In this document: piece by piece, positions 23,689-53,776 of the stretch | Layout: each line of letters starts with the position of its first letter | Numbering within the stretch: position 1 is the stretch's first letter | Origin: an uncultured Candidatus Saccharibacteria bacterium | GTDB taxonomy: Bacteria; Patescibacteriota; Andersenbacteria; UBA10190 | Direction: 5' to 3' | Assembly (NCBI GenBank): GCA_964610055.1 | Contig: CAZSUC010000001.1 | Span: forward strand, 505,692-569,691 | DNA length: 64,000 nucleotides | The notes under the pieces: generated by a model | The model's database searches: none | Seen by the model: the letters and a program-made list of their open reading frames with translations, nothing else | Told to the model about the DNA's origin: nothing | Program-made: the position numbers and the translations under genes

Positions 23689-24969
23689 TTATACGTACGG
23701 TAAATTATCAGGTGGTGTCGCCATACCACTCTTCGCCCAAGTAACTCCCGGAGTTCTAACATAACGAGTTGGCAAATGAAAGATTGTTGCTAGTTCTTCC
23801 GCTGTCATCATCTGACCCGACTCATCTCCCCAAAAATCACGGGATTGATAATTCACTAAGGCTACTCGTTTACGCCACATTCTTCGCGCATGCTTCATAA
23901 AATAATTTGGGCCATTAGTTTTATTTCTTGATGGCTTAAAACTATTTAAATGAAACGTATTAAATTGCTTAAAAGCACCAACGGCTTTACTGATATTGGG
24001 CTTATATAATTTTCCGGCCGGGGCAATATAAATCACTCGTATTTTTGCTAAAAACCCCGTTCGGGAAACTTTTTGCAATATTCCTTTCATGGCCGCATCT
24101 TCAGCCGGATTGCTAAACTTTAGGATACGTTCTTGTTTTTCTTCTTCCGCCACCAAAGCCTCAGGACCCTCAAAAGCCGCTTTCATCAGTAATAAGGGGA
24201 AAGATGCAATAGCTTGAACTGCGCGTACAAATAAATTGGGTTCCGGATCCTCCTGGGGCTTTCCTGATATTTTAGAAATTTCTTCTTGTCCTTTTTCCGC
24301 CCATTTTGCAATCGCTCCTGCATCTATCGGTCGGATAAGAACTTGTACCCAAAATTCTTCCCCCGAACCAACATTAGAATAAGCCTCCACTAATGCCTGA
24401 TGAGGATCCATAAACTTTATGTCTTCTGCCAAAGCTTCCTCGTATTCTCGATATACCCGAATCGGATAAATATCAGATTCCACCAATTCAATATCAGCGC
24501 TCCATAAATCGTATGTCTTCTCTAAATTACGATAATCAAAACGACGCGTATAATCTGGTGCTTCTTTCACTTCAGCAGAAGGATATTGTCCATAAATCAC
24601 TCCTTCAAAAAATTTTGCATGTGCTGTCGGAACTATCATGAAATAACGTACTTCATTTTGACGGCACCAGATTTCGCATGAATACCAAGCCAAGAAATAT
24701 CCCATAAAATATTTTTCAACCAAATCTGGATTTTTATGAATTCCACCCCACACTTCAAAAGCATTTTCCATTGCCTTTGGTGTTTGATCATTATCTTCTG
24801 GAATCGAAATCTCAAAAACAGTCCATTCAATCGTAGAAACGTATTCAATGTGCTTAATCAGACGATAAACCTCCCAGGCTATCCATAAAGCTAAGACCAT
24901 TACCAAAATCCAGCCCCACGCCAAAATAGCGTCAAGCAGCACCACCACGGCGGCGCCAAAATCTATCAT
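23689..24969 (-). CDS. Hypothetical membrane protein (N-terminal transmembrane helices plus a roughly 380-aa soluble domain), probably translationally coupled to the downstream ATPase
   Basis: N-terminal hydrophobic segments (AAVVVLLDAILAWGWILVMVLALWIAW). Only 3 nt separate it from the ATPase gene. No motif I recognise. Confidence 0.4.
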   Translation of the reverse strand: MIDFGAAVVVLLDAILAWGWILVMVLALWIAWEVYRLIKHIEYVSTIEWTVFEISIPEDNDQTPKAMENAFEVWGGIHKNPDLVEKYFMGYFLAWYSCEIWCRQNEVRYFMIVPTAHAKFFEGVIYGQYPSAEVKEAPDYTRRFDYRNLEKTYDLWSADIELVESDIYPIRVYREYEEALAEDIKFMDPHQALVEAYSNVGSGEEFWVQVLIRPIDAGAIAKWAEKGQEEISKISGKPQEDPEPNLFVRAVQAIASFPLLLMKAAFEGPEALVAEEEKQERILKFSNPAEDAAMKGILQKVSRTGFLAKIRVIYIAPAGKLYKPNISKAVGAFKQFNTFHLNSFKPSRNKTNGPNYFMKHARRMWRKRVALVNYQSRDFWGDESGQMMTAEELATIFHLPTRYVRTPGVTWAKSGMATPPDNLPYV

Positions 24970-26213: not shown

Positions 26214-27482
26214 CTAGTTAAATAACTCCCTTGCAATACCATCTAAATATCCTGCCGAAAATATGACAATTAAGCCAAAATATTGCGATTCTTTCTGTAA
26301 TATTTCCTTTAATTCTGACCAGTCAGTCAGTGCTATGACGGGCTTATTTTTTGTCTCTAATTCATCTGCTAGTACTGTACTCTCTATTTTATTTTTACCT
26401 TCTTGTCTGGCTCGATAGACCGGACCAACAACTACTTTATCTGCCTCGCTCAAGGCCTCAACAAAATCATGTTGAAACTCTTGGAGACGATCCTCAGTGT
26501 GCGGTTCAATAATTGCCAAGATCTTTTTATCCGCATAATGAGCCCGCGCACCTTTAATTGTAGCCATAATTTCAGTTGGGTGATGGCCATAATCGCTAAC
26601 AATTAACGCTCGATTCAAGTTCCCGATAATTTCAAAACGACGTCCTAATCCCGGAAAAGTAGCTAGCGCCGCTTCCGCTTGGTGACGAGCAACTCCTAAC
26701 AATTCCGCCACCTTGACTGCCAAAGCCGCGTTATGCTGCATATGTTGACCCGGTATCGGTATTTTTATTTCACCCACTAAATCATTTCCAATTGTAATTA
26801 ATTGATTATTTTTAATAACCGGTTTCCATTCACTATATGTTTGTTCATCAGTAATCAATTTTCCTGTAGCCGGTAATTTATCAACCATGACTTGAAAACT
26901 CTGATAAACATCTTTTTTTGATTTGAAAAAATCAGGATGATCAAAATCTAAACTTGTGACAATTAAATATTCCGGATTTAACTTCCAAAAATGATTGCGA
27001 TATTCATCTGCTTCCACTACTAACCACTCATTTTTACCTACCCAGGCATTACCCAGCGGCCACCCCGGAACTTTTGCCCCTAAAAGTATACTCGCTTCAA
27101 CCTTATTATTTAGCAGAATATGCCCCAAAAAAGCTGTTGTTGATGATTTTCCATGCGTACCCGCTACAGCAATAACGTGATAATCCTGACTAAAATCACC
27201 TAACTCTTCTTGATATGGACGCAATGAAATATTAAATTCTTGCGCCATCATCAGTAACGGATGCTGGGCAGTTAAAGCATCCGAGTACACAACCCTTTGA
27301 CATGTTTGAATGCGATCCCGCATTTCCTTTTCGGTTATCAATTCAAATTCTTTTAAATCAGGATCATTAAATATGTCTTGATTTTGGTCACAACCACACA
27401 CTCTCACTCCCTTTGACTGCTCGAGTGCCGCTAACGCTCTCATTCCTGCCCCTCCAATTCCTAGAAAGCAAACTTGACTCAT
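26214..27482 (-). CDS. murC: UDP-N-acetylmuramate--L-alanine ligase
   Basis: N-terminus FLGIGGAGMRALA and Mur-ligase P-loop GTHGKSSTTA. Confidence 0.9.
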   Translation of the reverse strand: MSQVCFLGIGGAGMRALAALEQSKGVRVCGCDQNQDIFNDPDLKEFELITEKEMRDRIQTCQRVVYSDALTAQHPLLMMAQEFNISLRPYQEELGDFSQDYHVIAVAGTHGKSSTTAFLGHILLNNKVEASILLGAKVPGWPLGNAWVGKNEWLVVEADEYRNHFWKLNPEYLIVTSLDFDHPDFFKSKKDVYQSFQVMVDKLPATGKLITDEQTYSEWKPVIKNNQLITIGNDLVGEIKIPIPGQHMQHNAALAVKVAELLGVARHQAEAALATFPGLGRRFEIIGNLNRALIVSDYGHHPTEIMATIKGARAHYADKKILAIIEPHTEDRLQEFQHDFVEALSEADKVVVGPVYRARQEGKNKIESTVLADELETKNKPVIALTDWSELKEILQKESQYFGLIVIFSAGYLDGIARELFN

Positions 27483-27487
27483 GGGAA

Positions 27488-28675
27488 CTAATTTAATCCA
27501 GTTTCATACGCAGCTGCAAATCCTGCTCCTAATCGCAAAGCTAAGTCAGCAATCTGCGCGCCTGCTTGCGGTGTATCTAGCTTCGCAATATTTTGTGCTA
27601 GCCGCTGACGTGTCGCGGGATCGGAAATTAGAGTATGTAAATTATGTTTAAACAATTCCTTACCCGAATTAGCTGGCGGTTCAAGTACAAATACTGCTCC
27701 CGCACGTTCAAAGACCTGAGCATTTTTAATCTGATGATTAGCCGCCGAATGCTCCAGCGGAATTATTAAAGCTGGCTTATGGCATCGTGCCAATTCTGCT
27801 AAAGTTGTTGCTCCGGCTCGCGAAACCACAATGTCAGCTGCCGCCAATGCAATTTCCATGTCATCGCTTAGATAAGGGAAAGGTTTATATTGCTCTTTCC
27901 GAGGAGAATTATTAATTAATTCTTGTGCAACCGTTACCACCGCTTGATAGTGATCCTGACCAGTCACATGAATAATGCTGGCTTCCGCAATAAAAAAAGG
28001 CAAGTGATGCAACAGCAATTCATTCAATTGTTGCGCACCTTGACTGCCGCCAAACATAAAAACTACAACTTCGTTAGCAGCAAAACCAAATTGACGCTTT
28101 GCTGATACTTGGTCAATAGTTCCTAAATTAGTCCGAACCGGAATGCCTGTCACAAATATTTTATTTTTGTATTTTCCCATTTCTTCTCGCGCTTCAGCGA
28201 AACCAACTGCAATCGTTGTCGCAAAACGACTCAACCAACGGTTTGATAAACCCGGTACCGCATCAGATTCATGTAATAAAACTGGAATTCGAAAAAAAAC
28301 AGCTGCTAATACAACCGGAACACTTCCATAACCTCCTTTACTAATAATAACATCCGGCATTTGGCGCCAAACTACAACTAAGGCTTTGGCAATTCCTAGC
28401 GGTAAGTTAACTAATAAGTCGACTATGTTTTTCCAAGAAGCATAACGACGTAATTTACCTGAAACGATATTTGTGACTTTAACATCATATTGGCCAAATA
28501 AGTCTTGTGCCGCCTGATTAACAACTCCCGCAAACACAATTTCTAATTCATTTGGATCAACCCGTGCTGGTAATTTATCTTGCTGCTCAATAAATCTTGT
28601 GCGCAAAGATTCAATCATCGGCACAAATGGTATTAAATGTCCGGCCGTTCCACCGCCGGTCAACATTATCCTCAT
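27488..28675 (-). CDS. murG: Undecaprenyl-PP-MurNAc-pentapeptide N-acetylglucosaminyltransferase
   Basis: N-terminus MLTGGGTAGHLIP and GT28 fold. Confidence 0.9.
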   Translation of the reverse strand: MRIMLTGGGTAGHLIPFVPMIESLRTRFIEQQDKLPARVDPNELEIVFAGVVNQAAQDLFGQYDVKVTNIVSGKLRRYASWKNIVDLLVNLPLGIAKALVVVWRQMPDVIISKGGYGSVPVVLAAVFFRIPVLLHESDAVPGLSNRWLSRFATTIAVGFAEAREEMGKYKNKIFVTGIPVRTNLGTIDQVSAKRQFGFAANEVVVFMFGGSQGAQQLNELLLHHLPFFIAEASIIHVTGQDHYQAVVTVAQELINNSPRKEQYKPFPYLSDDMEIALAAADIVVSRAGATTLAELARCHKPALIIPLEHSAANHQIKNAQVFERAGAVFVLEPPANSGKELFKHNLHTLISDPATRQRLAQNIAKLDTPQAGAQIADLALRLGAGFAAAYETGLN

Positions 28676-28696
28676 ATGTCTAGATTATCACGCTAT

Positions 28697-29806
28697 TTAC
28701 TCTTTGGCATAGCGGCTAATATTCAACAGCATGCCGGCTGCAAAGAGCGTGGTTGCTAAAGCCGATCCTCCATAACTAATAAACGGCAAAGGAATTCCCG
28801 TCATCGGAGTAACTCCTAAAATTGATCCAATATTGATAAACGCCTGCACAATAATCCAAGAAGTAATTCCAACCGCTAATAACCTACCAAAGATATCTGG
28901 TGTTTTTCGCGCAATACTAAATCCTCGCCACGCCAAGATCGCAAACACAAAAATTACCAAAGTACTTCGAATAAATCCTAATTCTTCCGCAATTACTGCA
29001 TAAATAGAATCCCCGGCAGGTTCAGGCAAATATTGATACTTTTGTCGACTTCGCCCAAATCCTAATCCCCAGATTCCACCTGATCCAGCTGCCAATAATG
29101 CTTGATTAATCTGATAGCCAATGCCTTGTGGATCTAATTCCGGATGCAAATAAACCATAATACGGTTCAATCGGTAACTCGCCGTTTTAACTAATATGCC
29201 TAAAATAACCAAACCACTCAGACCTAATAGAGATAAGTGCCTTAATCTAATGCCTCCCGCGTAAATCATGGCACTTCCAATCGCTAAAATACTGATTAAA
29301 GTGCCTAAATCTGGCTGCATGATAATTAAAATACTGATAATGCCCATAATAATTAAAAATGGCATCACCCCTTCTTTAAAATTCCGAATATGAGCACTCC
29401 TAGTTTCCAATAAAGCGGCTAAATAAATAATAAAAGCTAATTTCGTTAACTCCGTCGGCTGAATTGTAATCGGCCCGATTCCAATCCACCGCGCTGCTCC
29501 ACCTGAAGCCACCTGTAATTGCGGAATAAAGACTAAGACAAGCAAAATTAATGACGCTAACAATACCGGTAATGCCATTGGCCGCCAGCTTCTGTAAGGA
29601 ATATACATTCCGGCTAATAAAGCAATCAGACCAACAGAACCGCCATAAAGAAGCTGATGTTTCAAAAAATAAAAAGGATCCTGACTAAATCTTTCCGCAA
29701 TTACTGAAGAAGCTGAAGCCACCATCATTAAACCAAACAAAGTTAACCCTACAATCACTGCCAATAAAACAATATCAAATGGTCGGCTAGGTTTATTCTG
29801 CGTCAT
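28697..29806 (-). CDS. ftsW: SEDS-family peptidoglycan glycosyltransferase / cell division protein FtsW
   Basis: Ten-transmembrane SEDS topology with characteristic PEPAGDSIYA-type motif. Sits in the division/cell-wall cluster context. Confidence 0.85.
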   Translation of the reverse strand: MTQNKPSRPFDIVLLAVIVGLTLFGLMMVASASSVIAERFSQDPFYFLKHQLLYGGSVGLIALLAGMYIPYRSWRPMALPVLLASLILLVLVFIPQLQVASGGAARWIGIGPITIQPTELTKLAFIIYLAALLETRSAHIRNFKEGVMPFLIIMGIISILIIMQPDLGTLISILAIGSAMIYAGGIRLRHLSLLGLSGLVILGILVKTASYRLNRIMVYLHPELDPQGIGYQINQALLAAGSGGIWGLGFGRSRQKYQYLPEPAGDSIYAVIAEELGFIRSTLVIFVFAILAWRGFSIARKTPDIFGRLLAVGITSWIIVQAFINIGSILGVTPMTGIPLPFISYGGSALATTLFAAGMLLNISRYAKE

Positions 29807-31199
29807 ATTTCAATTGTAACACCGCCTTTTTAAAAGCCTCTCCTCTTTCAAACTCATTTTTAAATGATCCAAAACTTGTTGCTCCTGGTGACATTAAAAC
29901 CACTTCTCCAGCCTGAGCCGTATCTCGAGCTAATTGCACCGCGTCTTCTATCGTTGATGCCGCTGTCATTGGTACAGTGCATTGCAATAAACGCAAAGCA
30001 TCTTGCATTATATTAGTTGCATCACCTGGCAACCAAATTATATGTCCCAACTTCGCATTCATTACACATTTTGCCCAATTGTCGTACTTCAACCCTTTAT
30101 TATTTCCTCCCGCGATTAACACTATTTTTTGTTCGTGCCAATGCTCTAAAGCCGCACAACTAGCCTCCGGTATCGTTGCTGCTGAATCATTCACAAATGT
30201 CACCCCTTTATTTTCAGCTATGATTTCTTGTCGATGTGGTACACCAGTCCAAGACTTAAGTGCTAATCGCAACTTTTCAATAACGCCAAAATGCATTGCC
30301 AAAAATATACCAGGCAATAAATTCATCTGTCCTATCGCTCCGACATCCGGTAAATCACTTATTTTACATATTTCTGTCTTGATTCCATCTTTTACATAAA
30401 CAATTTTGTTAGCCTCGCAGCCAATACCATTTTGAGGAACCGTGCTGCGACTAAACCAATACTTACGTCCATTCCCTGTATCTTCCCATTTTCTAATATT
30501 AGGGTCGTCATAGTTCAAAAGAGCTAATTGATCGTTATTTTGTAGCGCAACTACTGAACGTTTTACAGCGTAATAGTCTTCTAACGATTCATATGTATTC
30601 AAATGATCCGGATATAAAGAAGTAACCACTACCACTGGAATATTTAAATTATGTTCAGCTAAAGCCTCTAAGCGCCAACTCGATAGCTCTACAACAATCG
30701 CATCTGTCGATTTGATTTTTGATAAATTTCCTAAAAGAGATTCTCCGTCAACTCCAATCATCCAAACTTTAGCATATATCGAACGTAAAATATGTCCTAT
30801 AAAGTGTGCTGTTGTCGTTTTTCCTTTTGTTCCTGTTATCGCAAAAATATTTTTTGTTGGTGCATATCTGATCAACAAACTACTGTCCATTTCAATTGGA
30901 ACCCCCGCCATACGCGCCATTTTTAGCCATTTTGAGTCACTTCTGACCGCTGGATTACGCACAACTAGATCGGCTTGTGTAAACCATTCCGGCTGATGCT
31001 CACCTAAATGCCATTCAAGTTCCGGACAATCAATTAATCTGTTTTTAATTTCTGCTAATTCCTGTTCTGTTTTTAAATCAGTCACTAAAACTCTAGCTCC
31101 TTGCTCGCATAACCATCGCACAGCACCTTCACCGCCACCTAGCTGACCTAAACCCATGACAGTAACTTTGCTTCCCTTTAAATCAGTAATCATGTCCAT
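29793..31199 (-). CDS. murD: UDP-N-acetylmuramoylalanine--D-glutamate ligase
   Basis: N-terminus KVTVMGLGQLGGGEGAVRWL and Mur-ligase P-loop GTKGKTTT. The ORF as given overlaps mraY, so the start is probably the Met at 31199 or the one at 31193. The Met at 31193 gives an ATGA overlap with the mraY stop. Confidence 0.85.
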   Translation of the reverse strand: MDMITDLKGSKVTVMGLGQLGGGEGAVRWLCEQGARVLVTDLKTEQELAEIKNRLIDCPELEWHLGEHQPEWFTQADLVVRNPAVRSDSKWLKMARMAGVPIEMDSSLLIRYAPTKNIFAITGTKGKTTTAHFIGHILRSIYAKVWMIGVDGESLLGNLSKIKSTDAIVVELSSWRLEALAEHNLNIPVVVVTSLYPDHLNTYESLEDYYAVKRSVVALQNNDQLALLNYDDPNIRKWEDTGNGRKYWFSRSTVPQNGIGCEANKIVYVKDGIKTEICKISDLPDVGAIGQMNLLPGIFLAMHFGVIEKLRLALKSWTGVPHRQEIIAENKGVTFVNDSAATIPEASCAALEHWHEQKIVLIAGGNNKGLKYDNWAKCVMNAKLGHIIWLPGDATNIMQDALRLLQCTVPMTAASTIEDAVQLARDTAQAGEVVLMSPGATSFGSFKNEFERGEAFKKAVLQLKYDAE

Positions 31200-32260
31200 T
31201 GTCCTCGTCCTACAATTGCAATCACCAAACCAATACCAGCCGAAACCGCCGCAATAATCCAAAAGCGCATTGTTACTTTTGTTTCCGGCCACCCCTTAGC
31301 TTCAAAATGATGATGAACTGGAGCTGACAAGAAGACTTTCTTCTTTAGTATTTTTTTTGAAGCCACTTGAATAATGACAGACGCTGATTCTAAAACTAAC
31401 GGAAACGCAATAATAGGCAAAACCAAAGCAGAGTTAGTCAGCATTGCAATAATTCCTAGGGTTGTGCCTAAACTCATCGCTCCCGTATCACCAATAAAAA
31501 ATCGAGCCGGATAAATATTAAACCATAAGAATGCCATTAGTGCCCCCACTATTGCCGCACAAAACATTGCTAATTCCATCCTCCCAATCACAAACGCTAA
31601 AGCTGTATAAGCCCCAAAACAAAATAACAAAATTCCACCGGCTAAACCATCTAAACCATCCGACTCATTAACTGAAAAAGCAGTTGAAACAATTACTAAA
31701 ATAAATAACGGCACATACCACCAACCAATTTCAAAATCATTTACTCCCGGCACATGAATTACGCTCCAACCAAGCTTCACGTAAAACCAATATGCTCCCC
31801 CCGCAGCAACCGCTGTATAGAGCAATAGTCTTTGCGTCATATTCATACCGCCAGTTTTTCCGCGTTTATGTACATTTAAATAGTCATCCCATAGCCCTAA
31901 TAACGCTGCAATCACTAGTGCCCCCAAAGGTAGCCAGGTTTGTGAGCGACTAAGAAAATTTAAATATTGTAACCATGGCCACGGCAAAATATATGCTCCC
32001 AGCCAAAATAATAACGCCAAGCCTAAAACTGTTCCCCAAACAATAATACCTCCTCCCACCGGAGTCCCCGCTTTTTCTGCATGCAACTTAGAGTAAATTG
32101 GCGTATTACCATTGTCTCTAATGCTTTTACCAAACTTATATTTATACAAAAAATGAGTTAAAACTGGCGTTAACCCCAAGGCGACTAAAAAAGTAATCAT
32201 TGCCAGTCCAATAACCCGCACCACGTCTATTACTAATTTTGGATCAGAAAATTGCAACAT
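31190..32260 (-). CDS. mraY: Phospho-N-acetylmuramoyl-pentapeptide transferase
   Basis: MraY/WecA-family polytopic membrane protein with conserved DD and HHH motifs (VHHHFE). Confidence 0.9.
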   Translation of the reverse strand: MLQFSDPKLVIDVVRVIGLAMITFLVALGLTPVLTHFLYKYKFGKSIRDNGNTPIYSKLHAEKAGTPVGGGIIVWGTVLGLALLFWLGAYILPWPWLQYLNFLSRSQTWLPLGALVIAALLGLWDDYLNVHKRGKTGGMNMTQRLLLYTAVAAGGAYWFYVKLGWSVIHVPGVNDFEIGWWYVPLFILVIVSTAFSVNESDGLDGLAGGILLFCFGAYTALAFVIGRMELAMFCAAIVGALMAFLWFNIYPARFFIGDTGAMSLGTTLGIIAMLTNSALVLPIIAFPLVLESASVIIQVASKKILKKKVFLSAPVHHHFEAKGWPETKVTMRFWIIAAVSAGIGLVIAIVGRGQWT

Positions 32261-33169
32261 TTATCCTCCGTACCGGGTTGTATCCGGCCATGAATAATTA
32301 CGTTCTATCCACTCCATGACTAATTTAGTATCTACAAAACGCTGATCACTTCCTAAAACAACAATTCCCACCGTATGACGATCGTTTGTTTGACTAATCA
32401 CTGCCAAATTTTCTTTGGCTTCCAAAGTAAACCCAGTTTTCCCTGCTAAAATTGGTATATAAGTGCCTAACAATTCATTCGTCGTTTTATATTTTAACTT
32501 CGACCCTTCAACAGACGTAATCTCACCGACCGACGCCGCTAAATCTGCTCGTAAAACATCGTCAGCATAAGCTAATTCTAGCATTTTTCTCACATCAGTT
32601 GCTGTCGCATACTGATCCCCGCCAGACAACCCTGTTGCATTAGTGGCTTTTGTTTCGGCCATTCCGTGAGTTAAGGCATAAATATTCATTTTGTTCACAA
32701 AATCATTTTCACTACCTGCACACGCCTGAGCCAATGCGATCATCGCATCATTTGCGGATGGCACTAAACCAGCTTTTAAAAGTTCGCTCACTAATACGTG
32801 CTCACCCGGAACTAATTTTACATCAACCCCTGCTTGCTGAGCCTTACGTACCTCGGTTGGAATTACTACTACTTGGCTCAAATCTAAACATTCCCTCACG
32901 GTTAAAGCTGACAATAACTTAGTTACACTTGCAATTGGACGTTGCTGATGCGAATTTTTTTCATATAAAATCTGTCCACTCTCTATATCCCAAGCTAAAA
33001 CCGATTCAGCTGTGGTTACCAAATCCATAGCTGGTCCAGTCTTTGTTGGAGCCGATATCTGTACTCCCGCCACGTTAGCTGTTGTTATCTGCTCCGGATC
33101 TTCGCACCACGAACCATTTGCATTTGTCAGCATACACGTCAAAGCAATTAATAACGCTTTAGCAATCAT
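32261..33169 (-). CDS. Serine-type D-Ala-D-Ala carboxypeptidase (peptidase S11, PBP5/6-like)
   Basis: SxxK active-site motif (IASVTKLL), an SAN-like motif (PSANDAM) and a KTG motif (AGKTGFT). Confidence 0.75.
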   Translation of the reverse strand: MIAKALLIALTCMLTNANGSWCEDPEQITTANVAGVQISAPTKTGPAMDLVTTAESVLAWDIESGQILYEKNSHQQRPIASVTKLLSALTVRECLDLSQVVVIPTEVRKAQQAGVDVKLVPGEHVLVSELLKAGLVPSANDAMIALAQACAGSENDFVNKMNIYALTHGMAETKATNATGLSGGDQYATATDVRKMLELAYADDVLRADLAASVGEITSVEGSKLKYKTTNELLGTYIPILAGKTGFTLEAKENLAVISQTNDRHTVGIVVLGSDQRFVDTKLVMEWIERNYSWPDTTRYGG

Positions 33170-36227: not shown

Positions 36228-37817
36228 ATGCTGTCAATCACCATTATTATACTCATCCTAGTCGGGGCTAGTACTATTACAGCGACAATTTTTTCCCAAG
36301 CATACTTTTGGCAACGCAAAGAATACCGTTGGGATCGGATGCGCTCTCTTCTAACTAGTGAAGAGCGCCAAGGTCCTTTCAGTTTTTGGCTCTTTTTAGG
36401 CATTACCTGTTTATTTTTTGCTTGGCTGGCTGTTTTTGAACAGCTATCTTTTGCCTCAGCCCTTAGCTTCATTAGTTTAATTGGTTTCAGTTTTCATCAC
36501 TTTTGGCGTATTTATCAACGCGGAATTTACCGCCCTGCCGTAACTGTAAAAGCCCTACTCGTCATCTTCTTTTCTGCTATCAGTCTAATGAGCTTGATTT
36601 TCTTAACCTATGAATCGACTTTATTATTAACGCTGCAATGGGCTTCCTTTATCTTCCTTGTCCCTTTCTTAACCGCATTTTCTGTCGGGCTAGTAAACCT
36701 GATAACTTATCCGCAACGACAACGCATTATTAATCACGCCCACTTATTACGTCGTAATCTTCCTACTCTTACCGTTGTTGGTATTACTGGTAGCTTTGGT
36801 AAAACTTCGACTAAATACTTTCTTAGTCAAATCCTTACTCACGCTAAACTCACTCATGTTTCTAGTCGTCACCACCGCAATTCAGAGTTAGCTATTGCTC
36901 AAGATATGATAACACAGCTATCACCTAAAACTAAGATTTATATCGCTGAAATGGGTGCCTATACTAAAGGAGAAATTGCTGCCTTAGCTCGCCTAACTCA
37001 GCCGCGACTCGGTATCATTACTAACATCGGCAACCAACATCTTGCTTTGTTTGGTTCACCTGAAAACTTAGCGACTGCTAAATGGGAACTCGCTCAAGAA
37101 TTGCCCCCAGATGGCACTCTGATCTTAAACCAGGACAACCCTATTCTGCGTGACAAAGCTCATAATTTCTCTGGACGCATTATCTGGTTTAGTACCGTTG
37201 CCGATGCCCAAATTAGAGCTGAAAGTATTGTCTCCTCTCCCCGTCAACTTGATTTCACTCTGCATATAAATAACGACCAACGCCATGTCACTATTCCGCT
37301 ATTAAGCCAAGCTCCTATCTCTAATATTCTGGCCGCCGTCGCTGGGGCGATGGCTCTCGGAGTTAATTCAAATGACATTTTTGCGGCACTTTCTCATCTT
37401 CAACCCATGCCTCGTACCATGGAATTAATAACTAAAAAAAATGGTCAAACTGTTATTGATGATAGCTATAGTGCTAATGAAACTGGCGTCTTAGAAGCAA
37501 TTCGTCATTTAGCTACTTTTCCTGATAAGCATAAAATTATTTTTCTTTCCCCTTTAATTGAACTTGGCTCACGCGCACATTTAACACATGAATTAATCGG
37601 CCAAGCGCTCAGTTCAGTTGATGCTCAAGTATATTTAACTAATTCGCATTATTCAGTCGACATTAAACATGGTTTCGGAACTGACTCATCCTCAAACCTG
37701 AAAATCGCGTCCAAACCAACTGAAATTAAAGCCGCCTTAGCCCAAATTCCTCCCGCAAGCGTAATCTTACTTGAAGGACGAATTCCTGAACTTGTCCGTA
37801 AATCCCTACTAAGTTAA
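36228..37817 (+). CDS. murF: MurF-like Mur ligase whose N-terminal domain is replaced by a roughly 170-aa five-transmembrane membrane domain
   Basis: P-loop VVGITGSFGKTSTK appears at about aa 185. MurF-specific motifs follow: ITNIGNQHLALFGS and VIDDSYSANETG (DDSYNAN-type). The first ~170 aa are five hydrophobic helices. Confidence 0.7.
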   Translation: MLSITIIILILVGASTITATIFSQAYFWQRKEYRWDRMRSLLTSEERQGPFSFWLFLGITCLFFAWLAVFEQLSFASALSFISLIGFSFHHFWRIYQRGIYRPAVTVKALLVIFFSAISLMSLIFLTYESTLLLTLQWASFIFLVPFLTAFSVGLVNLITYPQRQRIINHAHLLRRNLPTLTVVGITGSFGKTSTKYFLSQILTHAKLTHVSSRHHRNSELAIAQDMITQLSPKTKIYIAEMGAYTKGEIAALARLTQPRLGIITNIGNQHLALFGSPENLATAKWELAQELPPDGTLILNQDNPILRDKAHNFSGRIIWFSTVADAQIRAESIVSSPRQLDFTLHINNDQRHVTIPLLSQAPISNILAAVAGAMALGVNSNDIFAALSHLQPMPRTMELITKKNGQTVIDDSYSANETGVLEAIRHLATFPDKHKIIFLSPLIELGSRAHLTHELIGQALSSVDAQVYLTNSHYSVDIKHGFGTDSSSNLKIASKPTEIKAALAQIPPASVILLEGRIPELVRKSLLS

Positions 37818-37826
37818 GGTGCATCC

Positions 37827-39056
37827 ATGCGCAATATTCTTACATCAGTTTCCCCAAACCTTGAGAACGACGACGCTAAACTCGCTCTTAAGCAATTGTT
37901 CTCTCCTTGGAATTGGTTTAATCCTCATTATGTCAAAATTTTAACTGATCGCCTCCTCGCCCTTTATCCTAATCGTCACGCTATTCTCACAAGTTCAGGT
38001 CGTAGCGCTCTTTATGCGGTCCTTGCTCAATTAAAACTACGTCCTGACGACGAAGTTATTATTCAAGCTTTTACCTGCGTCACTGTTCCGGCTGCAATTC
38101 AATGGGCCGGCGGCAAACCAGTATATGCGGATATCAAACCTCGTACGTACAATTTAGACCCCGAATCTGTCTTACAAGTTATTACGTCTCACACCAAAGC
38201 TATTATTATCCAGCACACCCTCGGTTTACCGGCTGACCTATCAGTTTTTCAAGAAATTGCTCGACAACATAACATTTTCCTAATTGAAGATTGTGCCCAT
38301 GCTTTTGGCGCTAGCTATGCCGGACAATTAGTCGGATCCTTTGGTGACGCCGCCATTCTTAGTTTTGGCCGTGACAAAGCTTTATCCGGAGTTTTTGGTG
38401 GCACTGTTATTACTCCTAATTCTGATTTTGCTGATAAAATTCGCGCTGCTCAAGCAAGTCTACCTTTACCCCCTGTCTGGTGGATCATTCAACAGCTTTT
38501 ACATCCTCTTGTCTCTCGCTTAGTTATTCCTTTGTATTTCACGAGCAAAATCGGTCGTATTATTCTGGTTATCAGCCAAAAACTCAACCTTATTAGTAAA
38601 GCCGTTACTCCTTCTGAGCGAACGGGTGCCAAACCTTCATTGCTTTTTTGGCGCATGTCTCCCGCTTTAGCTATTTTAACTTCTCATCAACTCGATAAAC
38701 TGCTCCGTTTTACTTCTCATCGCCGTCATATTGCTCAAATTTATCTCGACCATTTAGCTAATCCACCTATTATCCCGACTACAGCTGAGCCATCTTGGTT
38801 ACGCTTTCCTCTAACAACGAAATATCCTCGTCGTTTACATATGCAAGCTCGTCGTTTACACATCCTTCTTGGTGATTGGTACGATGCCCCTATCGCCCCT
38901 CGCACTGTTAATCCAGCCGATTTTGGTTATCAGTCAGGTAGTTGTCCTGTTGCTGAATCAACTGCTCGTCGTATTGTTAATCTGCCAACTAATATTTTTG
39001 TCACTGAAAGCGACGCGCATCGTTTAATTCATTTAATTCAAAACCATGTCGCTTGA
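37827..39056 (+). CDS. DegT/DnrJ/EryC1/StrS-family PLP-dependent sugar aminotransferase
   Basis: Fold-type I aminotransferase with a putative Lys-bearing segment (SFGRDKALSG) and a sugar-aminotransferase-like N-terminus. Confidence 0.65.
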   Translation: MRNILTSVSPNLENDDAKLALKQLFSPWNWFNPHYVKILTDRLLALYPNRHAILTSSGRSALYAVLAQLKLRPDDEVIIQAFTCVTVPAAIQWAGGKPVYADIKPRTYNLDPESVLQVITSHTKAIIIQHTLGLPADLSVFQEIARQHNIFLIEDCAHAFGASYAGQLVGSFGDAAILSFGRDKALSGVFGGTVITPNSDFADKIRAAQASLPLPPVWWIIQQLLHPLVSRLVIPLYFTSKIGRIILVISQKLNLISKAVTPSERTGAKPSLLFWRMSPALAILTSHQLDKLLRFTSHRRHIAQIYLDHLANPPIIPTTAEPSWLRFPLTTKYPRRLHMQARRLHILLGDWYDAPIAPRTVNPADFGYQSGSCPVAESTARRIVNLPTNIFVTESDAHRLIHLIQNHVA

Positions 39057-40074
39057 AGTTCAGATCATTACTAATCAAACTGACTGGGAAAAATTAGTTC
39101 TCGCTGCTCATCCCAACACTTTTCTGCAATCATGGGCCTGGGGAGAAACTCAACTTGCTGATAACGAACAAATACAACGTCTTGTTGTTTTAGATCACAA
39201 TCACCCGATTGCCCTCGCAACCGTTATTTTAGTTAACGCCCGTCGTGGACGCCATTATTTAATTCCACACGGACCGCTTTATTTACAACCAGATCTCACC
39301 CCTCAAGCCTTAGATGCTATTATTGCGCATTTAAACACCACTGCTTCTATTGACCATGCTGTCGCCTTACGCATCGCCCCCCTACTTCTTACTTCGCCAG
39401 ATTCAAAGCAATTATTTAAATCACGAAATTTTCATCCTGCCCCCCTTCACGTTCACACTGAATTAACTTGGGTTTTAGACATTTCTCGTCCCAGTGACGA
39501 GTTACTTGCTGGTATGCGCAAAACTACTCGTCATGCTATCCGTAAAGCTGAACAAGCCGGGATCAGTTGTGAAATTATTACTGATATTTCTGCGCTTGAT
39601 CGTTTCTGGCCGCTTTACGATAAAACTCGACAACGGCATGGCTTCGTGCCCTTCAATTTAAAGTTTCTTACTAATCAATGGCATGCTTTTGAGTCTCATA
39701 ATCATATTTTTGCTGTCATTGCTCGTTATCATGATCAAGACGTCGCTGCTGGTATATTCATTGATTATGCCGGTACTGTTTTTTACCATCACGGCGCTTC
39801 TCTTAAACTGCCTAGCAATGTTCCTGCCGCCCACGCTGTTCAATGGCATGCTATCCAAGAAGCGCAACATCGTGGTGCCACTAATTTTAATTTCTGGGGC
39901 ATTGCGCCCGCTAATCAACCCAACCACCCATTCACTGGCATTCGGATTTTTAAAACTGGATTTGGCGGCCAAGCGTTTGATTATCTGCATGCCCAAGACC
40001 TCCCTTTCTCATGGCGCTATTGGTTCCTTTGGGGCGTAGATACTTATCGAAAATACCGTCGCGGATTCGCCTAG
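39046..40074 (+). CDS. FemAB-family aminoacyl-tRNA-dependent peptidoglycan peptidyltransferase (GNAT-like tandem fold)
   Basis: Length and sequence organisation of FemX/FemAB enzymes. Lies adjacent to murF and cell-wall genes. Confidence 0.65.
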   Translation: MSLEVQIITNQTDWEKLVLAAHPNTFLQSWAWGETQLADNEQIQRLVVLDHNHPIALATVILVNARRGRHYLIPHGPLYLQPDLTPQALDAIIAHLNTTASIDHAVALRIAPLLLTSPDSKQLFKSRNFHPAPLHVHTELTWVLDISRPSDELLAGMRKTTRHAIRKAEQAGISCEIITDISALDRFWPLYDKTRQRHGFVPFNLKFLTNQWHAFESHNHIFAVIARYHDQDVAAGIFIDYAGTVFYHHGASLKLPSNVPAAHAVQWHAIQEAQHRGATNFNFWGIAPANQPNHPFTGIRIFKTGFGGQAFDYLHAQDLPFSWRYWFLWGVDTYRKYRRGFA

Positions 40075-43507: not shown

Positions 43508-46144
43508 TTAATCTTTATTTATCATAGCTATTAATAATTTTTCTAATTCCTCAGTTCTTTTTTCCCAAGAATGGCTTCGTGCTAATTCAATTCTTTGCCC
43601 TGCCTGCACATCGGGAACATGTAGCCATTTTTCTGCTGCCTTAACTAATTCCTCTGCCCCTTTAACATAACTAATCTGATCTTGATACCGTTTTAATTCC
43701 GGTACTCCAGATGCAATCACAGGTTTACCACTGGCCATAAATTCCCAAAACTTTAAGGGGAAACTTGCTTCATTGTATTTGTTAACTCGATAAGGAATTA
43801 AACAAATATCAAAATACGAAACATATGCCGGTGCTAACTCCTGCGCAATTGCTGGCAAGATCGTAATATTTTTTAGATTTCCTATTTTTTCAACTTCTCC
43901 ATCTCGATCAACTACTGGTTTACCAACTAAAACAAACTGCCATTCTGGTCGCAACTCAGCTGCTCGATACAACATCTTTACGTCTATCTTATACGCATCC
44001 AACGCCCCAATCGAGCCTAAAACTGGACCAGTTAAACTAGATAATTCTGGCGGTGCTTGCTTATTTCCCGCTCCAGCCAAAAACAACTCGACATTTCCAG
44101 CATTTAAAACTAAATTTACATTCTTATTCTGTTTGTGTTTATCGTCCCATAATTTATGTGACGTTACTGTCACTAAATCAGCTCGTTGCATAATTTCATT
44201 TTCTTCTCGGCGTACCCGCTCAGCGTTCCGATTCGGGCCTGCTTGAGCCGCATGATCGTCTACACAGTCATATACCACTTTCCCTTGCCAAGTAGATAAA
44301 TACTCTGCTGCTTCCGTATCATAAATCCACATCACTGTTTTTTTACGACTAAAGCCTAATAGTCCCGCTAATAACCAGACATTGTACCGATTCAACCAAT
44401 GATTCATGCGACTTATTCCCTCTGATTCACGTGACCATGGAATTAGATTCCATTGAGATTTAATAAATAATCCCGTCTCTGCTTGCTCAAACCAAATAAT
44501 TCTCCATAATAAACGTCCAATCTCTCGCCAGTCTTTCCTTCGTAACCACAACGCCCGAACCAGCCATACTCGCGGTTCTATATATAAAACTGGATATTTT
44601 TTACTCAATCTTTTCATGATTTGCTGTCGATTCGTTAACGGCAAAGCGTCATATGCTGCTCCGGCAAAACATACAATGCCTATCTGTCCATCCCGCACTT
44701 TGCGTTTCCACAAATTTGGCAATAAATCAGACTTACCTATCCACCATCCAGTAAGTCCAATTAAAACTATGAAGACGATCCCGCGCAGCCATATATTTGG
44801 ATCAAAGAATAGCCAAGCAATCACTCCCACTACACTCGCTAGTACAATCAATACATCTTGATCCACTAGTGCTAAATCTAAACGTTTCAAACTATACCAA
44901 AGCGACAATACATAAGCCAAAGAAACTCCGCTCAATACCGCAATTGCCGCTAGCATAGCATCTGGGCGTTGCCACAATAGAAACGCGATAATCACCGCCG
45001 ATACCACGGTCATAATGCCAAAAAGCACTGCTCGATCTCTTGGTTTATCAGCCGCGACTAAAGCACTGCTCGTCCCAACGTCTAATAAGGCATATAGAAA
45101 AAAAGCCAATGTCATTATTAAAATTAGATGTCGTGCTGGTAAATATTCTGCCCCCACCACGTATTGCAATATCTCTGGCACAAAAAAGACTAATCCTACC
45201 GTTAACGCCGCCAAAACCACCAAAACCCGTTTCATATTCCGTGACACAATTCGTGCAAAGACCGCTTTATCTTGCATATACACTGAACTCATCCAGGCCA
45301 AATTAACTTCTGATAAAGCCATGGCCACAATTGTTAGTTTTGATCCGAAGGTTAACGAAACATTAATGTGCCCCAACTCATCCGCTGTTAGCACTCCTCC
45401 TAACAGCAACAACGGCAATCTTTGCCATACCACAAAGAATATCCGAGCCAAATACATGTAAATGCCAATCCTCATTACTCGTCGGCCATATTGCCTAATT
45501 TCTGGCCAACCAGGCCAACTCAAGTCTCCTGTCAACTCCTTACGCACTAACCCTGCCAGCAAGATTACCATGATCAATGTCGTTATAATCATAGCCGCAA
45601 AGAATCCATTTGCTGCATATTGCCAAGTCAACCACCCAAAAACACCCACGTTAATCAAGGCTGTTAAAATCTGCACTTTATACAAAGAAACAAATCTCTT
45701 TAATCCAGTTACTGTTGCTCCCATGACGTCTTGTAATCCCTGTAAAACTAAGACAGCTGCAAACATTTTAATTAACCCTGCTATTTCTGGACGACCATAC
45801 AAAGAACCAGCAATCCAGCTCGCTAACAATAAAAGTGCAATTGATAACGGTACTGTCACGACTTGTCTTACAATCTGAGATACCCAAAATACTGTTCCTT
45901 GCGCTTTCTTGTCTTTTAAAATCGCAATTTCCCTAATTGTCCCATCTACAATACCCAAATGTTGAGTCACTCCTACCACTCCGCCAATTGAAGTAACCAA
46001 ACCAATCAATCCATATTCTGCCGGGGACAAAACACGGATTACAATCACACTTTGAATAATCCCTAATATTGTCGTTATCGCCTTAGTAACCAATGACAAA
46101 AATTGAGTACGCGCCAGACTCATATTGCTCTTTCTTTTATCCAT
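43508..46144 (-). CDS. Fusion protein: N-terminal MOP-superfamily (Wzx-like) polysaccharide flippase domain plus C-terminal GT4-like glycosyltransferase domain
   Basis: The first ~480 aa carry about 12-14 transmembrane helices typical of polysaccharide biosynthesis/flippase proteins. The C-terminal ~390 aa show a GT-B pattern (FPLKFWEFMASGKPVIASGVPEL). Confidence 0.6.
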   Translation of the reverse strand: MDKRKSNMSLARTQFLSLVTKAITTILGIIQSVIVIRVLSPAEYGLIGLVTSIGGVVGVTQHLGIVDGTIREIAILKDKKAQGTVFWVSQIVRQVVTVPLSIALLLLASWIAGSLYGRPEIAGLIKMFAAVLVLQGLQDVMGATVTGLKRFVSLYKVQILTALINVGVFGWLTWQYAANGFFAAMIITTLIMVILLAGLVRKELTGDLSWPGWPEIRQYGRRVMRIGIYMYLARIFFVVWQRLPLLLLGGVLTADELGHINVSLTFGSKLTIVAMALSEVNLAWMSSVYMQDKAVFARIVSRNMKRVLVVLAALTVGLVFFVPEILQYVVGAEYLPARHLILIMTLAFFLYALLDVGTSSALVAADKPRDRAVLFGIMTVVSAVIIAFLLWQRPDAMLAAIAVLSGVSLAYVLSLWYSLKRLDLALVDQDVLIVLASVVGVIAWLFFDPNIWLRGIVFIVLIGLTGWWIGKSDLLPNLWKRKVRDGQIGIVCFAGAAYDALPLTNRQQIMKRLSKKYPVLYIEPRVWLVRALWLRRKDWREIGRLLWRIIWFEQAETGLFIKSQWNLIPWSRESEGISRMNHWLNRYNVWLLAGLLGFSRKKTVMWIYDTEAAEYLSTWQGKVVYDCVDDHAAQAGPNRNAERVRREENEIMQRADLVTVTSHKLWDDKHKQNKNVNLVLNAGNVELFLAGAGNKQAPPELSSLTGPVLGSIGALDAYKIDVKMLYRAAELRPEWQFVLVGKPVVDRDGEVEKIGNLKNITILPAIAQELAPAYVSYFDICLIPYRVNKYNEASFPLKFWEFMASGKPVIASGVPELKRYQDQISYVKGAEELVKAAEKWLHVPDVQAGQRIELARSHSWEKRTEELEKLLIAMINKD

Positions 46145-51389: not shown

Positions 51390-52016
51390 TTATTTTACTC
51401 GTCGTACAGTCGTTAATAACCTCGTCTTCTGTTCAAGCGTGCCCATATCTCCTCGTCGATATGACGGTAATTCTTTACAAGCAAACGTACAGCGTCCATC
51501 TGGCCAGATTTTTCCGCTATAACTCCAACGTTTCAACCAAATCTTAACTATAGATTCCAAATCAACTTTCCAAATAACATTATTGTATTGAAATGCTTCG
51601 GGAAACATTTTGTGTAAACTTTTCAGTTCAGCCCCCATGCTCTCGAATATAAAATGATCCTTACATATATGTGGACCCATATACACCCCTTCAAGATCAT
51701 AAATATTTAAATAATCTTCTATCGCTCCCAAAATACCCGCGACTAATGATTTTCGGCTTACATGTGCGATTATGGCTTTCTCCTTACCTAGTAACCCTAG
51801 CGGCAAACAATCAGAAGTATATACCCCAGCCTCTATATTTTTCTCAGCAACCAAAATTCCATCGGCCACAGTCACTCCCCGCAATATTTTTTCTGCGGCC
51901 AGAATTACACCAGTATGTTGTTGTTTTGCCAATACTACCGGACTTTTAAAATCACGCTCTTGGCCACACCTCACCCGCCAGTTCCCGATCTCCAGAATTA
52001 AGATGGGCACATCCAA
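51390..52016 (-). CDS. pgeF: YfiH/PgeF-family (DUF152) laccase-domain protein / peptidoglycan editing factor
   Basis: Conserved Cys/His positions (TSDCLPL, IAHVSRKS, MGPHIC). Confidence 0.7.
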   Translation of the reverse strand: MDVPILILEIGNWRVRCGQERDFKSPVVLAKQQHTGVILAAEKILRGVTVADGILVAEKNIEAGVYTSDCLPLGLLGKEKAIIAHVSRKSLVAGILGAIEDYLNIYDLEGVYMGPHICKDHFIFESMGAELKSLHKMFPEAFQYNNVIWKVDLESIVKIWLKRWSYSGKIWPDGRCTFACKELPSYRRGDMGTLEQKTRLLTTVRRVK

Positions 52017-53776
52017 ATTCCAACCTCATTATTGAAAAACACAGCATCTTGTTTTTGAAGAAAATTCTCCCAAACTTGATATTCATCTTGAGACAGTAAT
52101 ATAAAATCTGCTTGTTTGCAGACTCGCGCCTGAGATTCAATATTCCCCGCAAAAGCTAACTGAATTTCGGCTAATAATTCATCATTCACAGATAACCAGT
52201 AATCTTTAGTACGTACTACAGTTCGTCCTGTAAACATTGGTATACTCCAAAAACTATCTGGATTTTGCAAAAATATAGCTGACTCAGCGGTTTGATCCTT
52301 AATCCACCTCAAAGCCTGTATTTCTTCACGACTCACTCGCTTTTCGTCTTGAAATAACAAACTATCCATTGTTGTCGCCATACTTGCCCCGACCGGCATC
52401 AGCATAATCATCACTATACTCAAACCACCTGCTAACCAAATTAACTGCATTATTCGCTCTTTCTTAAAGCTAATCCATATACCAACCCAACCTTTAATTA
52501 CTTTCTCAAATACTCCGACCGTCATTGGCCAAAGCAACAAAACTGCGTGATACCAAAACCGAGATGCATTTGCTATTACAAGCTCACGCTCCGAAAAAAT
52601 AAATGACACTAACCCTAACAGAACTAAAGTCACACCTAATCCAACTAAAATTGGCTTTTGCCGAAAATACAGAGCTGACCCTAAGCTTGTAATTATTATT
52701 AGCGGTGCTAATTTCATCGCGTCCAATGCCGCTGTGTATGAAAATTGAGGAACAATCGCTATTCCTCCCTCCCCAGGGGTAAACTTTAGAAAAATCACCA
52801 ACCACAACCCAATTCCTAAAACATATACCCAGCGAATTACTTTAGAATTTTGCGAATTTAACGCTTGCATTCCGTAACTCGCACAAATTAAACCTAAAGC
52901 CGCTGTTCCTGTAACCGCATTACTTAGGAGTAAAACTAAAGCAAATACAGCAGCTAATCCCCACTGCCACAAAGTTAGTTTATCCTTGTTGCTTTGTACC
53001 CTGTTCAATAAACCAACTAATCCTAAAAATATTCCCGTTAAGAAAAAATGACTTTGAGGATAAACAAAATTATCCCAACTCGTACCAATAACGTAGATCG
53101 CCATCAAACCTGTTAAAATAAGCATCATTCTACTGTTTAAATGTTGCGCAAACATTCGATCGTACCCCCAAAACAACAAAGGAATCGTGATTAAAACTTG
53201 TCCTAAGACCAACCACGGTAAGATAATTAACCAGTTATCAGCTAAACCCATCACCAAAACCAAGGTTGCTAATCCGCCGTGCAATAAAGTTGGATATTCT
53301 AAACCAGGTGAATACGAAAACGGGTTACGATCAAACAATCCCTGTTCCATTAACGAACCATTAACTAATGCGGATAAAGTCGCAGTATCTCCGTTATAAT
53401 ATCCATGTGCAATCCAACCACCATTCACCCAACCGTTCCGAGATAACACAATTATAGCCCCTAAAAAAACTAGGCTTGTTACTAAAACAACCGGCACCTC
53501 TTTTTTCCAAGTTTTTATTAAGACTTCTGGTAGCCGCCACTTTTTCCTATTCCAAAATCCTATCAACAAAAACAACACTGTTCCGATACCATACACATAT
53601 ATACTTGGCCAATTCGACCAAACCATACGATCAGCTATGGTTAGCACTAACCATTCTGCCTCCACCATAACACCAACTAGGGCTAGCCACACCGTCCATC
53701 TCTCTATTTTTCCGCACAATGATACTCCCAATACAGCTGAGCTCAATAAGCCTAAACCAATTAATAACCACATCAT
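51998..53776 (-). CDS. Polytopic membrane protein with C-terminal soluble domain (GT-C-like putative glycan polymerase/transferase)
   Basis: Twelve or more transmembrane helices followed by a ~170-aa hydrophilic C-terminus. Sits in a glycan-biosynthesis context. No definitive motif. Confidence 0.3.
   Translation of the reverse strand: MMWLLIGLGLLSSAVLGVSLCGKIERWTVWLALVGVMVEAEWLVLTIADRMVWSNWPSIYVYGIGTVLFLLIGFWNRKKWRLPEVLIKTWKKEVPVVLVTSLVFLGAIIVLSRNGWVNGGWIAHGYYNGDTATLSALVNGSLMEQGLFDRNPFSYSPGLEYPTLLHGGLATLVLVMGLADNWLIILPWLVLGQVLITIPLLFWGYDRMFAQHLNSRMMLILTGLMAIYVIGTSWDNFVYPQSHFFLTGIFLGLVGLLNRVQSNKDKLTLWQWGLAAVFALVLLLSNAVTGTAALGLICASYGMQALNSQNSKVIRWVYVLGIGLWLVIFLKFTPGEGGIAIVPQFSYTAALDAMKLAPLIIITSLGSALYFRQKPILVGLGVTLVLLGLVSFIFSERELVIANASRFWYHAVLLLWPMTVGVFEKVIKGWVGIWISFKKERIMQLIWLAGGLSIVMIMLMPVGASMATTMDSLLFQDEKRVSREEIQALRWIKDQTAESAIFLQNPDSFWSIPMFTGRTVVRTKDYWLSVNDELLAEIQLAFAGNIESQARVCKQADFILLSQDEYQVWENFLQKQDAVFFNNEVGIWMCPS

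Follow-up and report, generated by a model that had tools for sequence, protein, structure and literature searches.

A MurF-type ligase fused to a conserved five-helix membrane domain in Andersenbacteria and other bacteria of the Candidate Phyla Radiation

In the textbook view of peptidoglycan synthesis the ligases MurC to MurF are soluble cytoplasmic enzymes, the N-terminal domain of which grips the uridine diphosphate (UDP) handle of the precursor. What, then, is to be made of a MurF-type ligase that begins with five transmembrane (TM) helices? Such a protein, here called TM-MurF, is encoded in a 64,000 nt stretch of contig CAZSUC010000001.1 (assembly GCA_964610055.1, positions 505,692 to 569,691), from an uncultured bacterium deposited as Candidatus Saccharibacteria and placed by GTDB within the Andersenbacteria; the whole stretch is referred to below as the window. 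By sequence and by fold, TM-MurF is a MurF-type ligase, and the fusion is real and ancient. As judged from its sequence and genomic setting, it is probably the organism's own housekeeping MurF in a membrane-integral form. The gene and its parts are as follows (K+R, lysine plus arginine; AF2, AlphaFold2).

36228..37817, + strand: TM-MurF gene, a single uninterrupted open reading frame (ORF) with an ATG start, 529 aa; five-TM N-terminal domain fused to a MurF-type ligase
36228..36722, + strand: membrane domain, aa 1-165; five TM helices, predicted N-terminus out and C-terminus in
36309..36338, + strand: cytoplasmic interfacial motif W28-Q-R-K-E-Y-R-W-D-R37, directly after TM1 (43-sequence alignment)
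36522..36551, + strand: cytoplasmic loop motif G99-xx-R102-P103-xx-T106-x-K108, between TM3 and TM4 (alignment)
36708..36767, + strand: basic linker, aa 161-180; in the AF2 model the TM5 helix (134-176) runs unbroken into the first ligase strand; mean K+R 6.1
36780..36815, + strand: ATP-binding P-loop GITGSFGKTSTK, aa 185-196; G188, G191, K192 and K196 invariant
36783..37343, + strand: Mur ligase central (ATP-binding) domain, aa 186-372 (Pfam PF08245 Mur_ligase_M, 5e-34, above gathering score)
37419..37778, + strand: Mur ligase C-terminal domain, aa 398-517 (Pfam PF02875 Mur_ligase_C, 5e-8, above gathering score)
37458-37481, + strand: MurF-type motif DDSYSANE, aa 411-418, aligning with 'DDSYNANP' of Pseudomonas aeruginosa MurF (PaMurF)

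The ligase and its membrane domain

Residues 1-165 of TM-MurF comprise the five TM helices and residues 171-529 the central and C-terminal domains of a Mur ligase. The invariant P-loop GITGSFGKT and the two Pfam domains place the protein in the Mur ligase superfamily, and within it the assignment to MurF made by the initial annotation is borne out at several levels. The best NCBIfam model is TIGR01143 (murF) with 223.5 bits, followed by murD (97), murC (84) and murE (65). A sequence search of the PDB (phmmer) is led by MurF of P. aeruginosa, Escherichia coli and Acinetobacter baumannii. Likewise, an AF2 model built on 36 homologues (predicted local distance difference test score 92.9, predicted template-modelling score 0.91) was compared with solved structures by Foldseek; its top nine PDB matches, nine of the top ten, are all MurF (4qf5, E 5.6e-25), with MurC and MurE following. 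In a residue-level alignment to 4cvk, E241 (AEMGA), N269-Q270-H271 and K285-x-E287 align with PaMurF. The catalytic residues are intact and invariant, and the NxxxxH, KxE and DDSY(N/S)AN motifs are seen in the alignment of PDB hits. Both motifs first quoted as diagnostic are present, NIGNQHLALFGS at aa 266-277 and DDSYSANETG at aa 411-420; the consensus at the latter, C-terminal motif in TM-MurF of Microgenomates is DDTYNANP.

The canonical N-terminal domain (domain 1) is absent, as had been proposed. No N-terminal Mur_ligase domain (PF01225) is found in a Pfam scan of TM-MurF, and TIGR01143 is matched only over profile positions 65-403 of 418; with positions 1-64 unmatched, the part of the profile that corresponds to the N-domain is missing from the protein. 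In canonical MurF, domain 1 carries the uridine-ribose pocket for UDP-N-acetylmuramic acid (MurNAc)-tripeptide (PMC11569785).

In its place stand five TM helices, on which three lines of evidence agree. A 19-residue hydropathy scan finds five hydrophobic segments within aa 1-161, and the AF2 model has helices at 4-30, 35-42, 52-68, 73-98, 107-127 and 134-176 in the N-terminal region. Across the alignment of 36 sequences, the mean K+R count of successive loops alternates as 5.4 / 0.1 / 4.6 / 0.4 / 6.1. By the positive-inside rule this alternation indicates a five-TM topology with the N-terminus out and the C-terminus in, so that the ligase and both basic loops would be cytoplasmic. The outward-facing loops are only ~3-7 aa long, which makes a role as sensor or receptor unlikely. 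The membrane domain has no match in Pfam at E<=1 and none by fold in the PDB (best E 1.1).

Conservation of this domain was assessed by aligning 43 sequences, 24-44 % identical to the window protein and drawn from Andersenbacteria, Microgenomates, Peribacteria and others. No variation is seen at W28, Q29, E32, Y33, R34, D36 or P103; conservation reaches at least 90 % at K31, R37 and T106, and within Andersenbacteria G99 and R102 do not vary either. In this the motifs are on a par with the Glu and His of the active site and the P-loop lysine. Both motif loops, WQ(R)KEYRxDR and RPxxT, lie on the ligase side of the membrane and adjoin the entry of the polypeptide into the central domain, the point that domain 1 occupies in canonical MurF. 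Since the motifs are as invariant as catalytic residues, the membrane domain appears to be more than an anchor; the substrate may be bound by these loops at its diphosphate or nucleotide end, or the loops may dock partner proteins. The initial annotation had seen in the helices a tether that holds the enzyme beside MraY. Tethering at that place remains a reasonable suggestion, whereas the notion of a mere tether fits poorly with invariant motifs that face the cytoplasm.

The start codon as called is correct. Within aa 1-220 methionine occurs only at M1, M38 and M121, and the codons for aa 150-185 include no ATG, GTG or TTG, so that an internal start giving a separate ligase is not available. 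Additionally, the fusion is kept in all listed homologues, at 24-46 % identity.

A first database search returned at least 120 matches of ~490-580 aa at 36-46 % identity and 94-100 % query coverage; Candidatus Andersenbacteria contribute most of the matches listed, and several of the matches already bear the name MurF at NCBI or JGI. A search seeded with a member from Gottesmanbacteria gave at least another 120 full-length matches in Gottesmanbacteria, Levybacteria and other Microgenomates; in total the fusion architecture is kept in more than 240 full-length homologues. A hidden Markov model of the membrane domain only, searched against 1.84 billion cluster representatives (50 % identity clusters), matches 686 proteins at E<=1e-3, of which 177 reach E<=1e-10. 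They are nearly all 490-570 aa long with the domain at the N-terminus, the short ones resemble fragments, and the named distant members include Parcubacteria and Levybacteria. A scan for the peptide WQRKEYRxD in one genome per GTDB species gave 33 loci: ~30 in Andersenbacteria (some deposited under generic Saccharibacteria or Woesearchaeota labels) and one each in Peribacteria, Gottesmanbacteria and a bin labelled Limisphaerales. The TM-MurF form is typical of Andersenbacteria, many Microgenomates and other bacteria of the Candidate Phyla Radiation (CPR).

The Limisphaerales (Verrucomicrobiota) bin holds a divergent TM-MurF-like gene of 561 aa (L036:7923-9608; L numbers are our own handles for loci), with the motif WQRKEYRIDK, no Pfam match to Mur_ligase_C and neither of the two partner genes described below. 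Mis-binning, horizontal transfer or decay of the copy might each explain it.

Genomic setting and sister-lineage ligases

Whether a ligase of this form serves the cell wall or some other polymer is a question for its neighbourhood. The relevant genes of the window are the following.

37827..39056, + strand: DegT/DnrJ/EryC1-like pyridoxal phosphate (PLP) enzyme, 409 aa, directly downstream of TM-murF (Pfam, NCBIfam)
39046..40074, + strand: FemAB-family (aminoacyl-tRNA-dependent peptidyl transferase-like) protein, 342 aa (Pfam FemAB, 1.6e-25)
26214..32260, - strand: dcw block murC, murG, ftsW, murD, mraY (Pfam), 4 kb from TM-murF
26214-27482, - strand: murC (NCBIfam, 326 bits)
29793-31292, - strand: murD (NCBIfam, 334 bits)
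31190-32260, - strand: mraY (Pfam)
32261..33169, - strand: S11 D-Ala-D-Ala carboxypeptidase-like gene in the slot upstream of mraY (Pfam Peptidase_S11, 7e-44)

The dcw block of the window has neither murE nor murF in the usual slot upstream of mraY. The S11 gene, the position of which beside mraY is conserved in relatives, is followed by scpB, scpA and two GT2 genes, and the divergent TM-murF operon begins 40 bp from the last GT2 gene. The DD-carboxypeptidase-like product implies stem peptides that end in D-Ala-D-Ala. Only three Mur ligases are encoded in the 64-kb window, with no second MurF-type gene among them; murA, mreB and murJ are present, and neither murE nor ddl is seen there. This arrangement is conserved in Andersenbacteria at ~40 % protein identity (L001-L031): in the window and ~30 relatives TM-murF lies 4 kb from mraY, and the usual murF slot is without murF.

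In Microgenomates the gene lies within the dcw cluster itself, upstream of mraY, with only degT, fem and sometimes dgkA between. The complete genome CP066685.1 (L037, Levyibacteriota) has the order ftsI-murE-murC-murB-murA-glmU-x-glmS-hydrolase-TMmurF-degT-fem-mraY-ftsW-murG-x-ftsA-ftsZ; L038 and L033 have gene order of this type, with dgkA before mraY. The initial description of the gene as lying outside the dcw cluster is thus misleading, given the conserved synteny with a dcw block 4 kb away and the location inside the cluster in Microgenomates.

An alpha/beta-hydrolase gene (~235-250 aa) is found directly upstream of TM-murF in Microgenomates and Peribacteria; neither the window nor the Andersenbacteria have it there. 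This gene and the start codon of TM-murF overlap in L037-L039. Its copies are:

L033:7194-7910: alpha/beta-hydrolase gene
L032:7168-7923: alpha/beta-hydrolase gene
L037:9300-10004: alpha/beta-hydrolase gene
L038:9282-10004: alpha/beta-hydrolase gene
L039:9282-10004: alpha/beta-hydrolase gene

The two genes downstream of TM-murF are near-obligate companions. They were counted in 44 TM-MurF loci, the denominators being the loci with enough downstream DNA: a DegT-like gene follows TM-murF directly in 32 of 33, and a FemAB-like gene comes next in 28 of 29, with L036 as the sole exception to the triad. The initial annotation had noted both neighbours and had taken the group for the head of a glycan locus. 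The adjacency is confirmed, but the pair also accompanies TM-murF into dcw clusters without glycan genes, and the glycan-locus interpretation of the group is therefore given up.

The DegT-like protein keeps the PLP lysine motif SFGRDK, and its N-terminal half matches sugar aminotransferases; the PDB match to QdtB (2e-36) is split in two around an insert. This conserved insert of ~80 aa between the two matched halves (aa ~208-290) has a hydrophobic core at aa ~215-262; over 19 residues its hydropathy peaks at 1.5-2.5 in four lineages (1.6-2.5 in three of them). The core pattern, W-x-x-QQ-x-x-HP...PLY...IGK, recurs in L033:9518-10756 and L037:11587-12822. The insert is not present in any known sugar aminotransferase among the PDB matches. 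Its hydrophobicity suggests membrane association of the enzyme, and the insert is probably a membrane-associating hairpin. For the FemAB-like protein, the best PDB match is the Staphylococcus aureus lipid II:glycine glycyltransferase FemX (6snr, 3.6e-8).

Is TM-MurF the MurF orthologue or an additional paralogue? A sample of 80 metagenome loci around MurE of Microgenomates clusters was examined, in addition to L037-L039. TM-MurF occurs in 6 of the 80 and a MurF-type ligase without TM helices in 9, the two never together; L037-L039 likewise have the TM form. No second MurF-type gene lies within any of the 44 TM-MurF loci. The two kinds score similarly against TIGR01143 (147-264 bits without TM helices; 223-242 bits for TM-MurF).

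The soluble MurF-type ligases of sister CPR lineages also have no domain 1, and no membrane domain either. That of L114 (416 aa, directly upstream of mraY) matches TIGR01143 from position 65, beginning ~29 residues before the P-loop. A divergent soluble type of ~445 aa (TIGR01143 147-184 bits) lies between ftsI and murE, and in the L094 type the P-loop is at residue 36. A similar truncation is seen in MurE of Microgenomates dcw clusters: at 385-430 aa this protein has no N-terminal (UDP-binding) domain, matches TIGR01085 from position 71 and has its P-loop at residue ~32, with the gene directly after ftsI (33-44 bp gap in L037 and L038). In total, these soluble MurE and MurF proteins have 25-35 aa before the P-loop.

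L114:14760-16010: soluble MurF-type ligase without domain 1
L094:8638-9984: soluble MurF-type ligase without domain 1
L109:5852-7171: soluble MurF-type ligase without domain 1
L119:3533-4873: soluble MurF-type ligase without domain 1
L037:905-2062: truncated MurE gene (385 aa)
L038:546-1793: truncated MurE gene
L039:351-1643: truncated MurE gene
L040-L119: truncated MurE genes in ~75 further loci

Loss of domain 1 is thus a wider CPR trait, shared by MurF-types and MurE of sister lineages. The first description, in which the membrane domain replaces the N-terminal one, is right in that the one is absent and the other present, but simple replacement does not describe the history suggested by the soluble forms; from the sequences TM-MurF is best described as a truncated MurF to which a conserved membrane domain has been added. 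Truncated MurE was also considered as a sign, specific to TM-MurF, of lipid-linked substrates. It co-occurs with TM-MurF and with soluble MurF-types alike, and was rejected as such a sign.

Several other features of the window lie apart from this system. GC skew of the + strand is strongly negative over the whole window (1-64000; -0.17 to -0.37 in 2-kb windows), and this holds for the - strand genes (1-36 kb) as well as the + strand genes (36-40 and 54-64 kb). At 43508-46144 (-) an 878-aa protein joins a C-terminal GT4 glycosyltransferase to a polysaccharide flippase domain of the Wzx type (Polysacc_synt_3), a fusion that is conserved in the Andersenbacteria relatives L001-L003. The alanyl-tRNA synthetase at 19288-21069 (-) is of 593 aa and stops after the second additional domain; the typical C-terminal part of the bacterial enzyme is apparently missing. 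Five large ORFs (370-755 aa) at 17808-19262, 23689-24969, 51998-53776, 55751-58018 and 61781-62893 have no Pfam match at E<=1e-6.

A housekeeping MurF and its alternatives

Canonical MurF (E. coli 1GG4, P. aeruginosa 4CVK-M, A. baumannii 4QF5, Thermotoga maritima 3ZL8; TIGR01143) is the best match to TM-MurF in both sequence and fold. The two share the central ATP-binding and C-terminal domains, the P-loop, the Glu, His and Lys catalytic residues and the DDxYNAN-type motif. Position is also MurF-like, as TM-murF adjoins the dcw cluster, and the Microgenomates have it in the slot upstream of mraY. Unlike canonical MurF, TM-MurF has no domain 1, is an integral membrane protein by virtue of a 165-aa five-TM domain with invariant cytoplasmic motifs, has near-obligate DegT-like and FemAB-like operon partners, and scores below the family cut-off. 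The soluble MurF-type and MurE proteins of Microgenomates (L114, L037) resemble it in the absence of domain 1, in the dcw context and in the broad group of organisms, but the soluble MurF-types lack the membrane domain, and neither a DegT-like nor a FemAB-like gene accompanies them in the locus.

A housekeeping MurF is favoured by three observations: the TM and soluble forms exclude each other in the dcw cluster, TM-MurF scores like a MurF, and a DD-carboxypeptidase gene lies nearby. We infer that D-Ala-D-Ala is the substrate and that TM-MurF is the only MurF of the genome. The protein would add the terminal dipeptide to the MurNAc-tripeptide precursor in an ATP-dependent reaction. Its five N-terminal helices would embed it in the membrane with the ligase in the cytoplasm, and the continuation of TM5 as a rigid helix into the ligase would set the catalytic cleft at the cytoplasmic membrane face, where canonical MurF has its uridine-binding domain 1. 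There the WQ(R)KEYRxDR and RPxxT loops might grip the substrate by its diphosphate or nucleotide end, or serve as docking sites for partners, and the finished precursor could be passed straight to MraY. The working partners of TM-MurF would be the products of the two co-transcribed genes, the FemAB-like transferase and the DegT-like PLP enzyme that bears the hydrophobic insert.

Five points count against this reading. The score of 223.5 bits is below the curated TIGR01143 cut-off of 288.6, a shortfall that the lack of domain 1 accounts for. The textbook MurF step has no place for the near-obligate DegT-like and FemAB-like partners, which hint at chemistry beyond the addition of D-Ala-D-Ala. 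No ddl is found in any cluster examined. A second, canonical murF may lie elsewhere in the genome; murD and murE themselves are outside some of these clusters. Finally, the role given to the membrane-domain motifs is itself inferred.

The alternative that survives best, though on balance unlikely, is that of a MurF-derived ligase acting on lipid I or lipid II (undecaprenyl-diphosphate-MurNAc-peptide) instead of the UDP-linked precursor. The Arg, Lys, Trp and Tyr motifs of the membrane domain would then bind polyprenyl diphosphate, and the ligase, with the DegT-like and FemX-like proteins, would complete or modify the stem peptide after MraY as a module at the membrane face. Absence of the uridine-binding domain 1 (PMC11569785) is in keeping with such a substrate, as is the location of the invariant motifs, basic and aromatic, right at the interface of membrane and cytoplasm. 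The partners point the same way, in that the DegT-like enzyme has a hydrophobic insert and the nearest solved relative of the FemAB-like protein, S. aureus FemX, uses lipid II.

There is also a precedent in MurT of the MurT/GatD lipid II amidotransferase of S. aureus (6GS2/6H5E), a Mur-ligase homologue without the UDP-binding N-domain, as in TM-MurF, that acts at the membrane face on a lipid-linked peptidoglycan precursor, lipid II. MurT differs from TM-MurF, however, in being soluble, in its DUF1727 C-terminal domain and in its glutaminase partner; no GatD-like neighbour is found among the genes around TM-murF in the window or in the loci of relatives. Similarity between the two is marginal (NF052464 21 bits against a cut-off of 800; PDB E ~1e-4), and TM-MurF does not fall among MurT-type proteins. 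Moreover, the soluble MurF-types and MurE of sister lineages are without domain 1 as well, so loss of this domain alone does not imply a lipid substrate. The specific proposal that in Andersenbacteria and many Microgenomates an integral membrane MurF acts after MraY on a polyprenyl-diphosphate-linked (lipid I/II) tripeptide, with membrane-associated DegT-like and FemX-like enzymes, is more doubtful still.

Another Mur-ligase-family amide ligase is known at the membrane: the poly-gamma-glutamate synthetase PgsB/CapB is membrane-anchored and part of a membrane complex. Unlike TM-MurF, it has a single anchor helix and catalyses another reaction, and the similarity is weak (TIGR04012 16 bits).

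It is very improbable that TM-MurF is instead a paralogue that adds an amino acid or peptide to a carboxylated sugar polymer (O-antigen or teichuronopeptide-like) with a DegT-made amino sugar, a normal murF being located elsewhere. Beyond the triad the window does have glycosyltransferase genes, a Wzx-type flippase gene and a Wzy_C ligase-like gene, and enzymes of the DegT family are normally sugar aminotransferases. Against this, Microgenomates, including the complete Levyibacteriota genome, hold the triad within the dcw cluster, where it stands between glmS and mraY and away from any glycan genes, the Peribacteria locus L032 keeps the triad with no glycan genes in the part examined, and the ligase is specifically MurF-like, down to the DDxYxAN motif. 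That most triad-bearing genomes are without the glycan genes is already largely apparent. An artefact, with the true ligase starting internally and the membrane region belonging to a separate gene upstream or to a frameshifted fusion, is scarcely credible, as the ORF is uninterrupted with no start-like codon between aa 150 and 185, the fusion is kept in hundreds of independent assemblies, one unbroken helix (134-176) spans the junction in the AF2 model and the N-terminal motifs are invariant at the protein level, with nothing found in its favour.

Significance

A full-text literature search found no description of a membrane-embedded MurF. Many members of the family are already labelled 'MurF' in databases, a label that hides the distinct architecture; what is new here is the unannotated membrane domain, the recognition of a distinct and conserved MurF architecture, and its operon partnership.

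The TM-MurF family, with at least 686 clusters at 50 % identity in a major and poorly understood radiation, dispenses with domain 1 and builds MurF into the membrane, which contradicts the picture of the soluble cytoplasmic Mur ligase. Its operon partners are two enzymes without a place in the standard pathway. If the substrate were lipid-linked, these bacteria would have a re-ordered, membrane-face version of the textbook pathway. The family makes testable the coupling of the cytoplasmic and membrane stages of cell-wall synthesis, a possible channelling of precursor to MraY or even peptide assembly on a lipid-linked substrate, and the stem-peptide chemistry of CPR bacteria.

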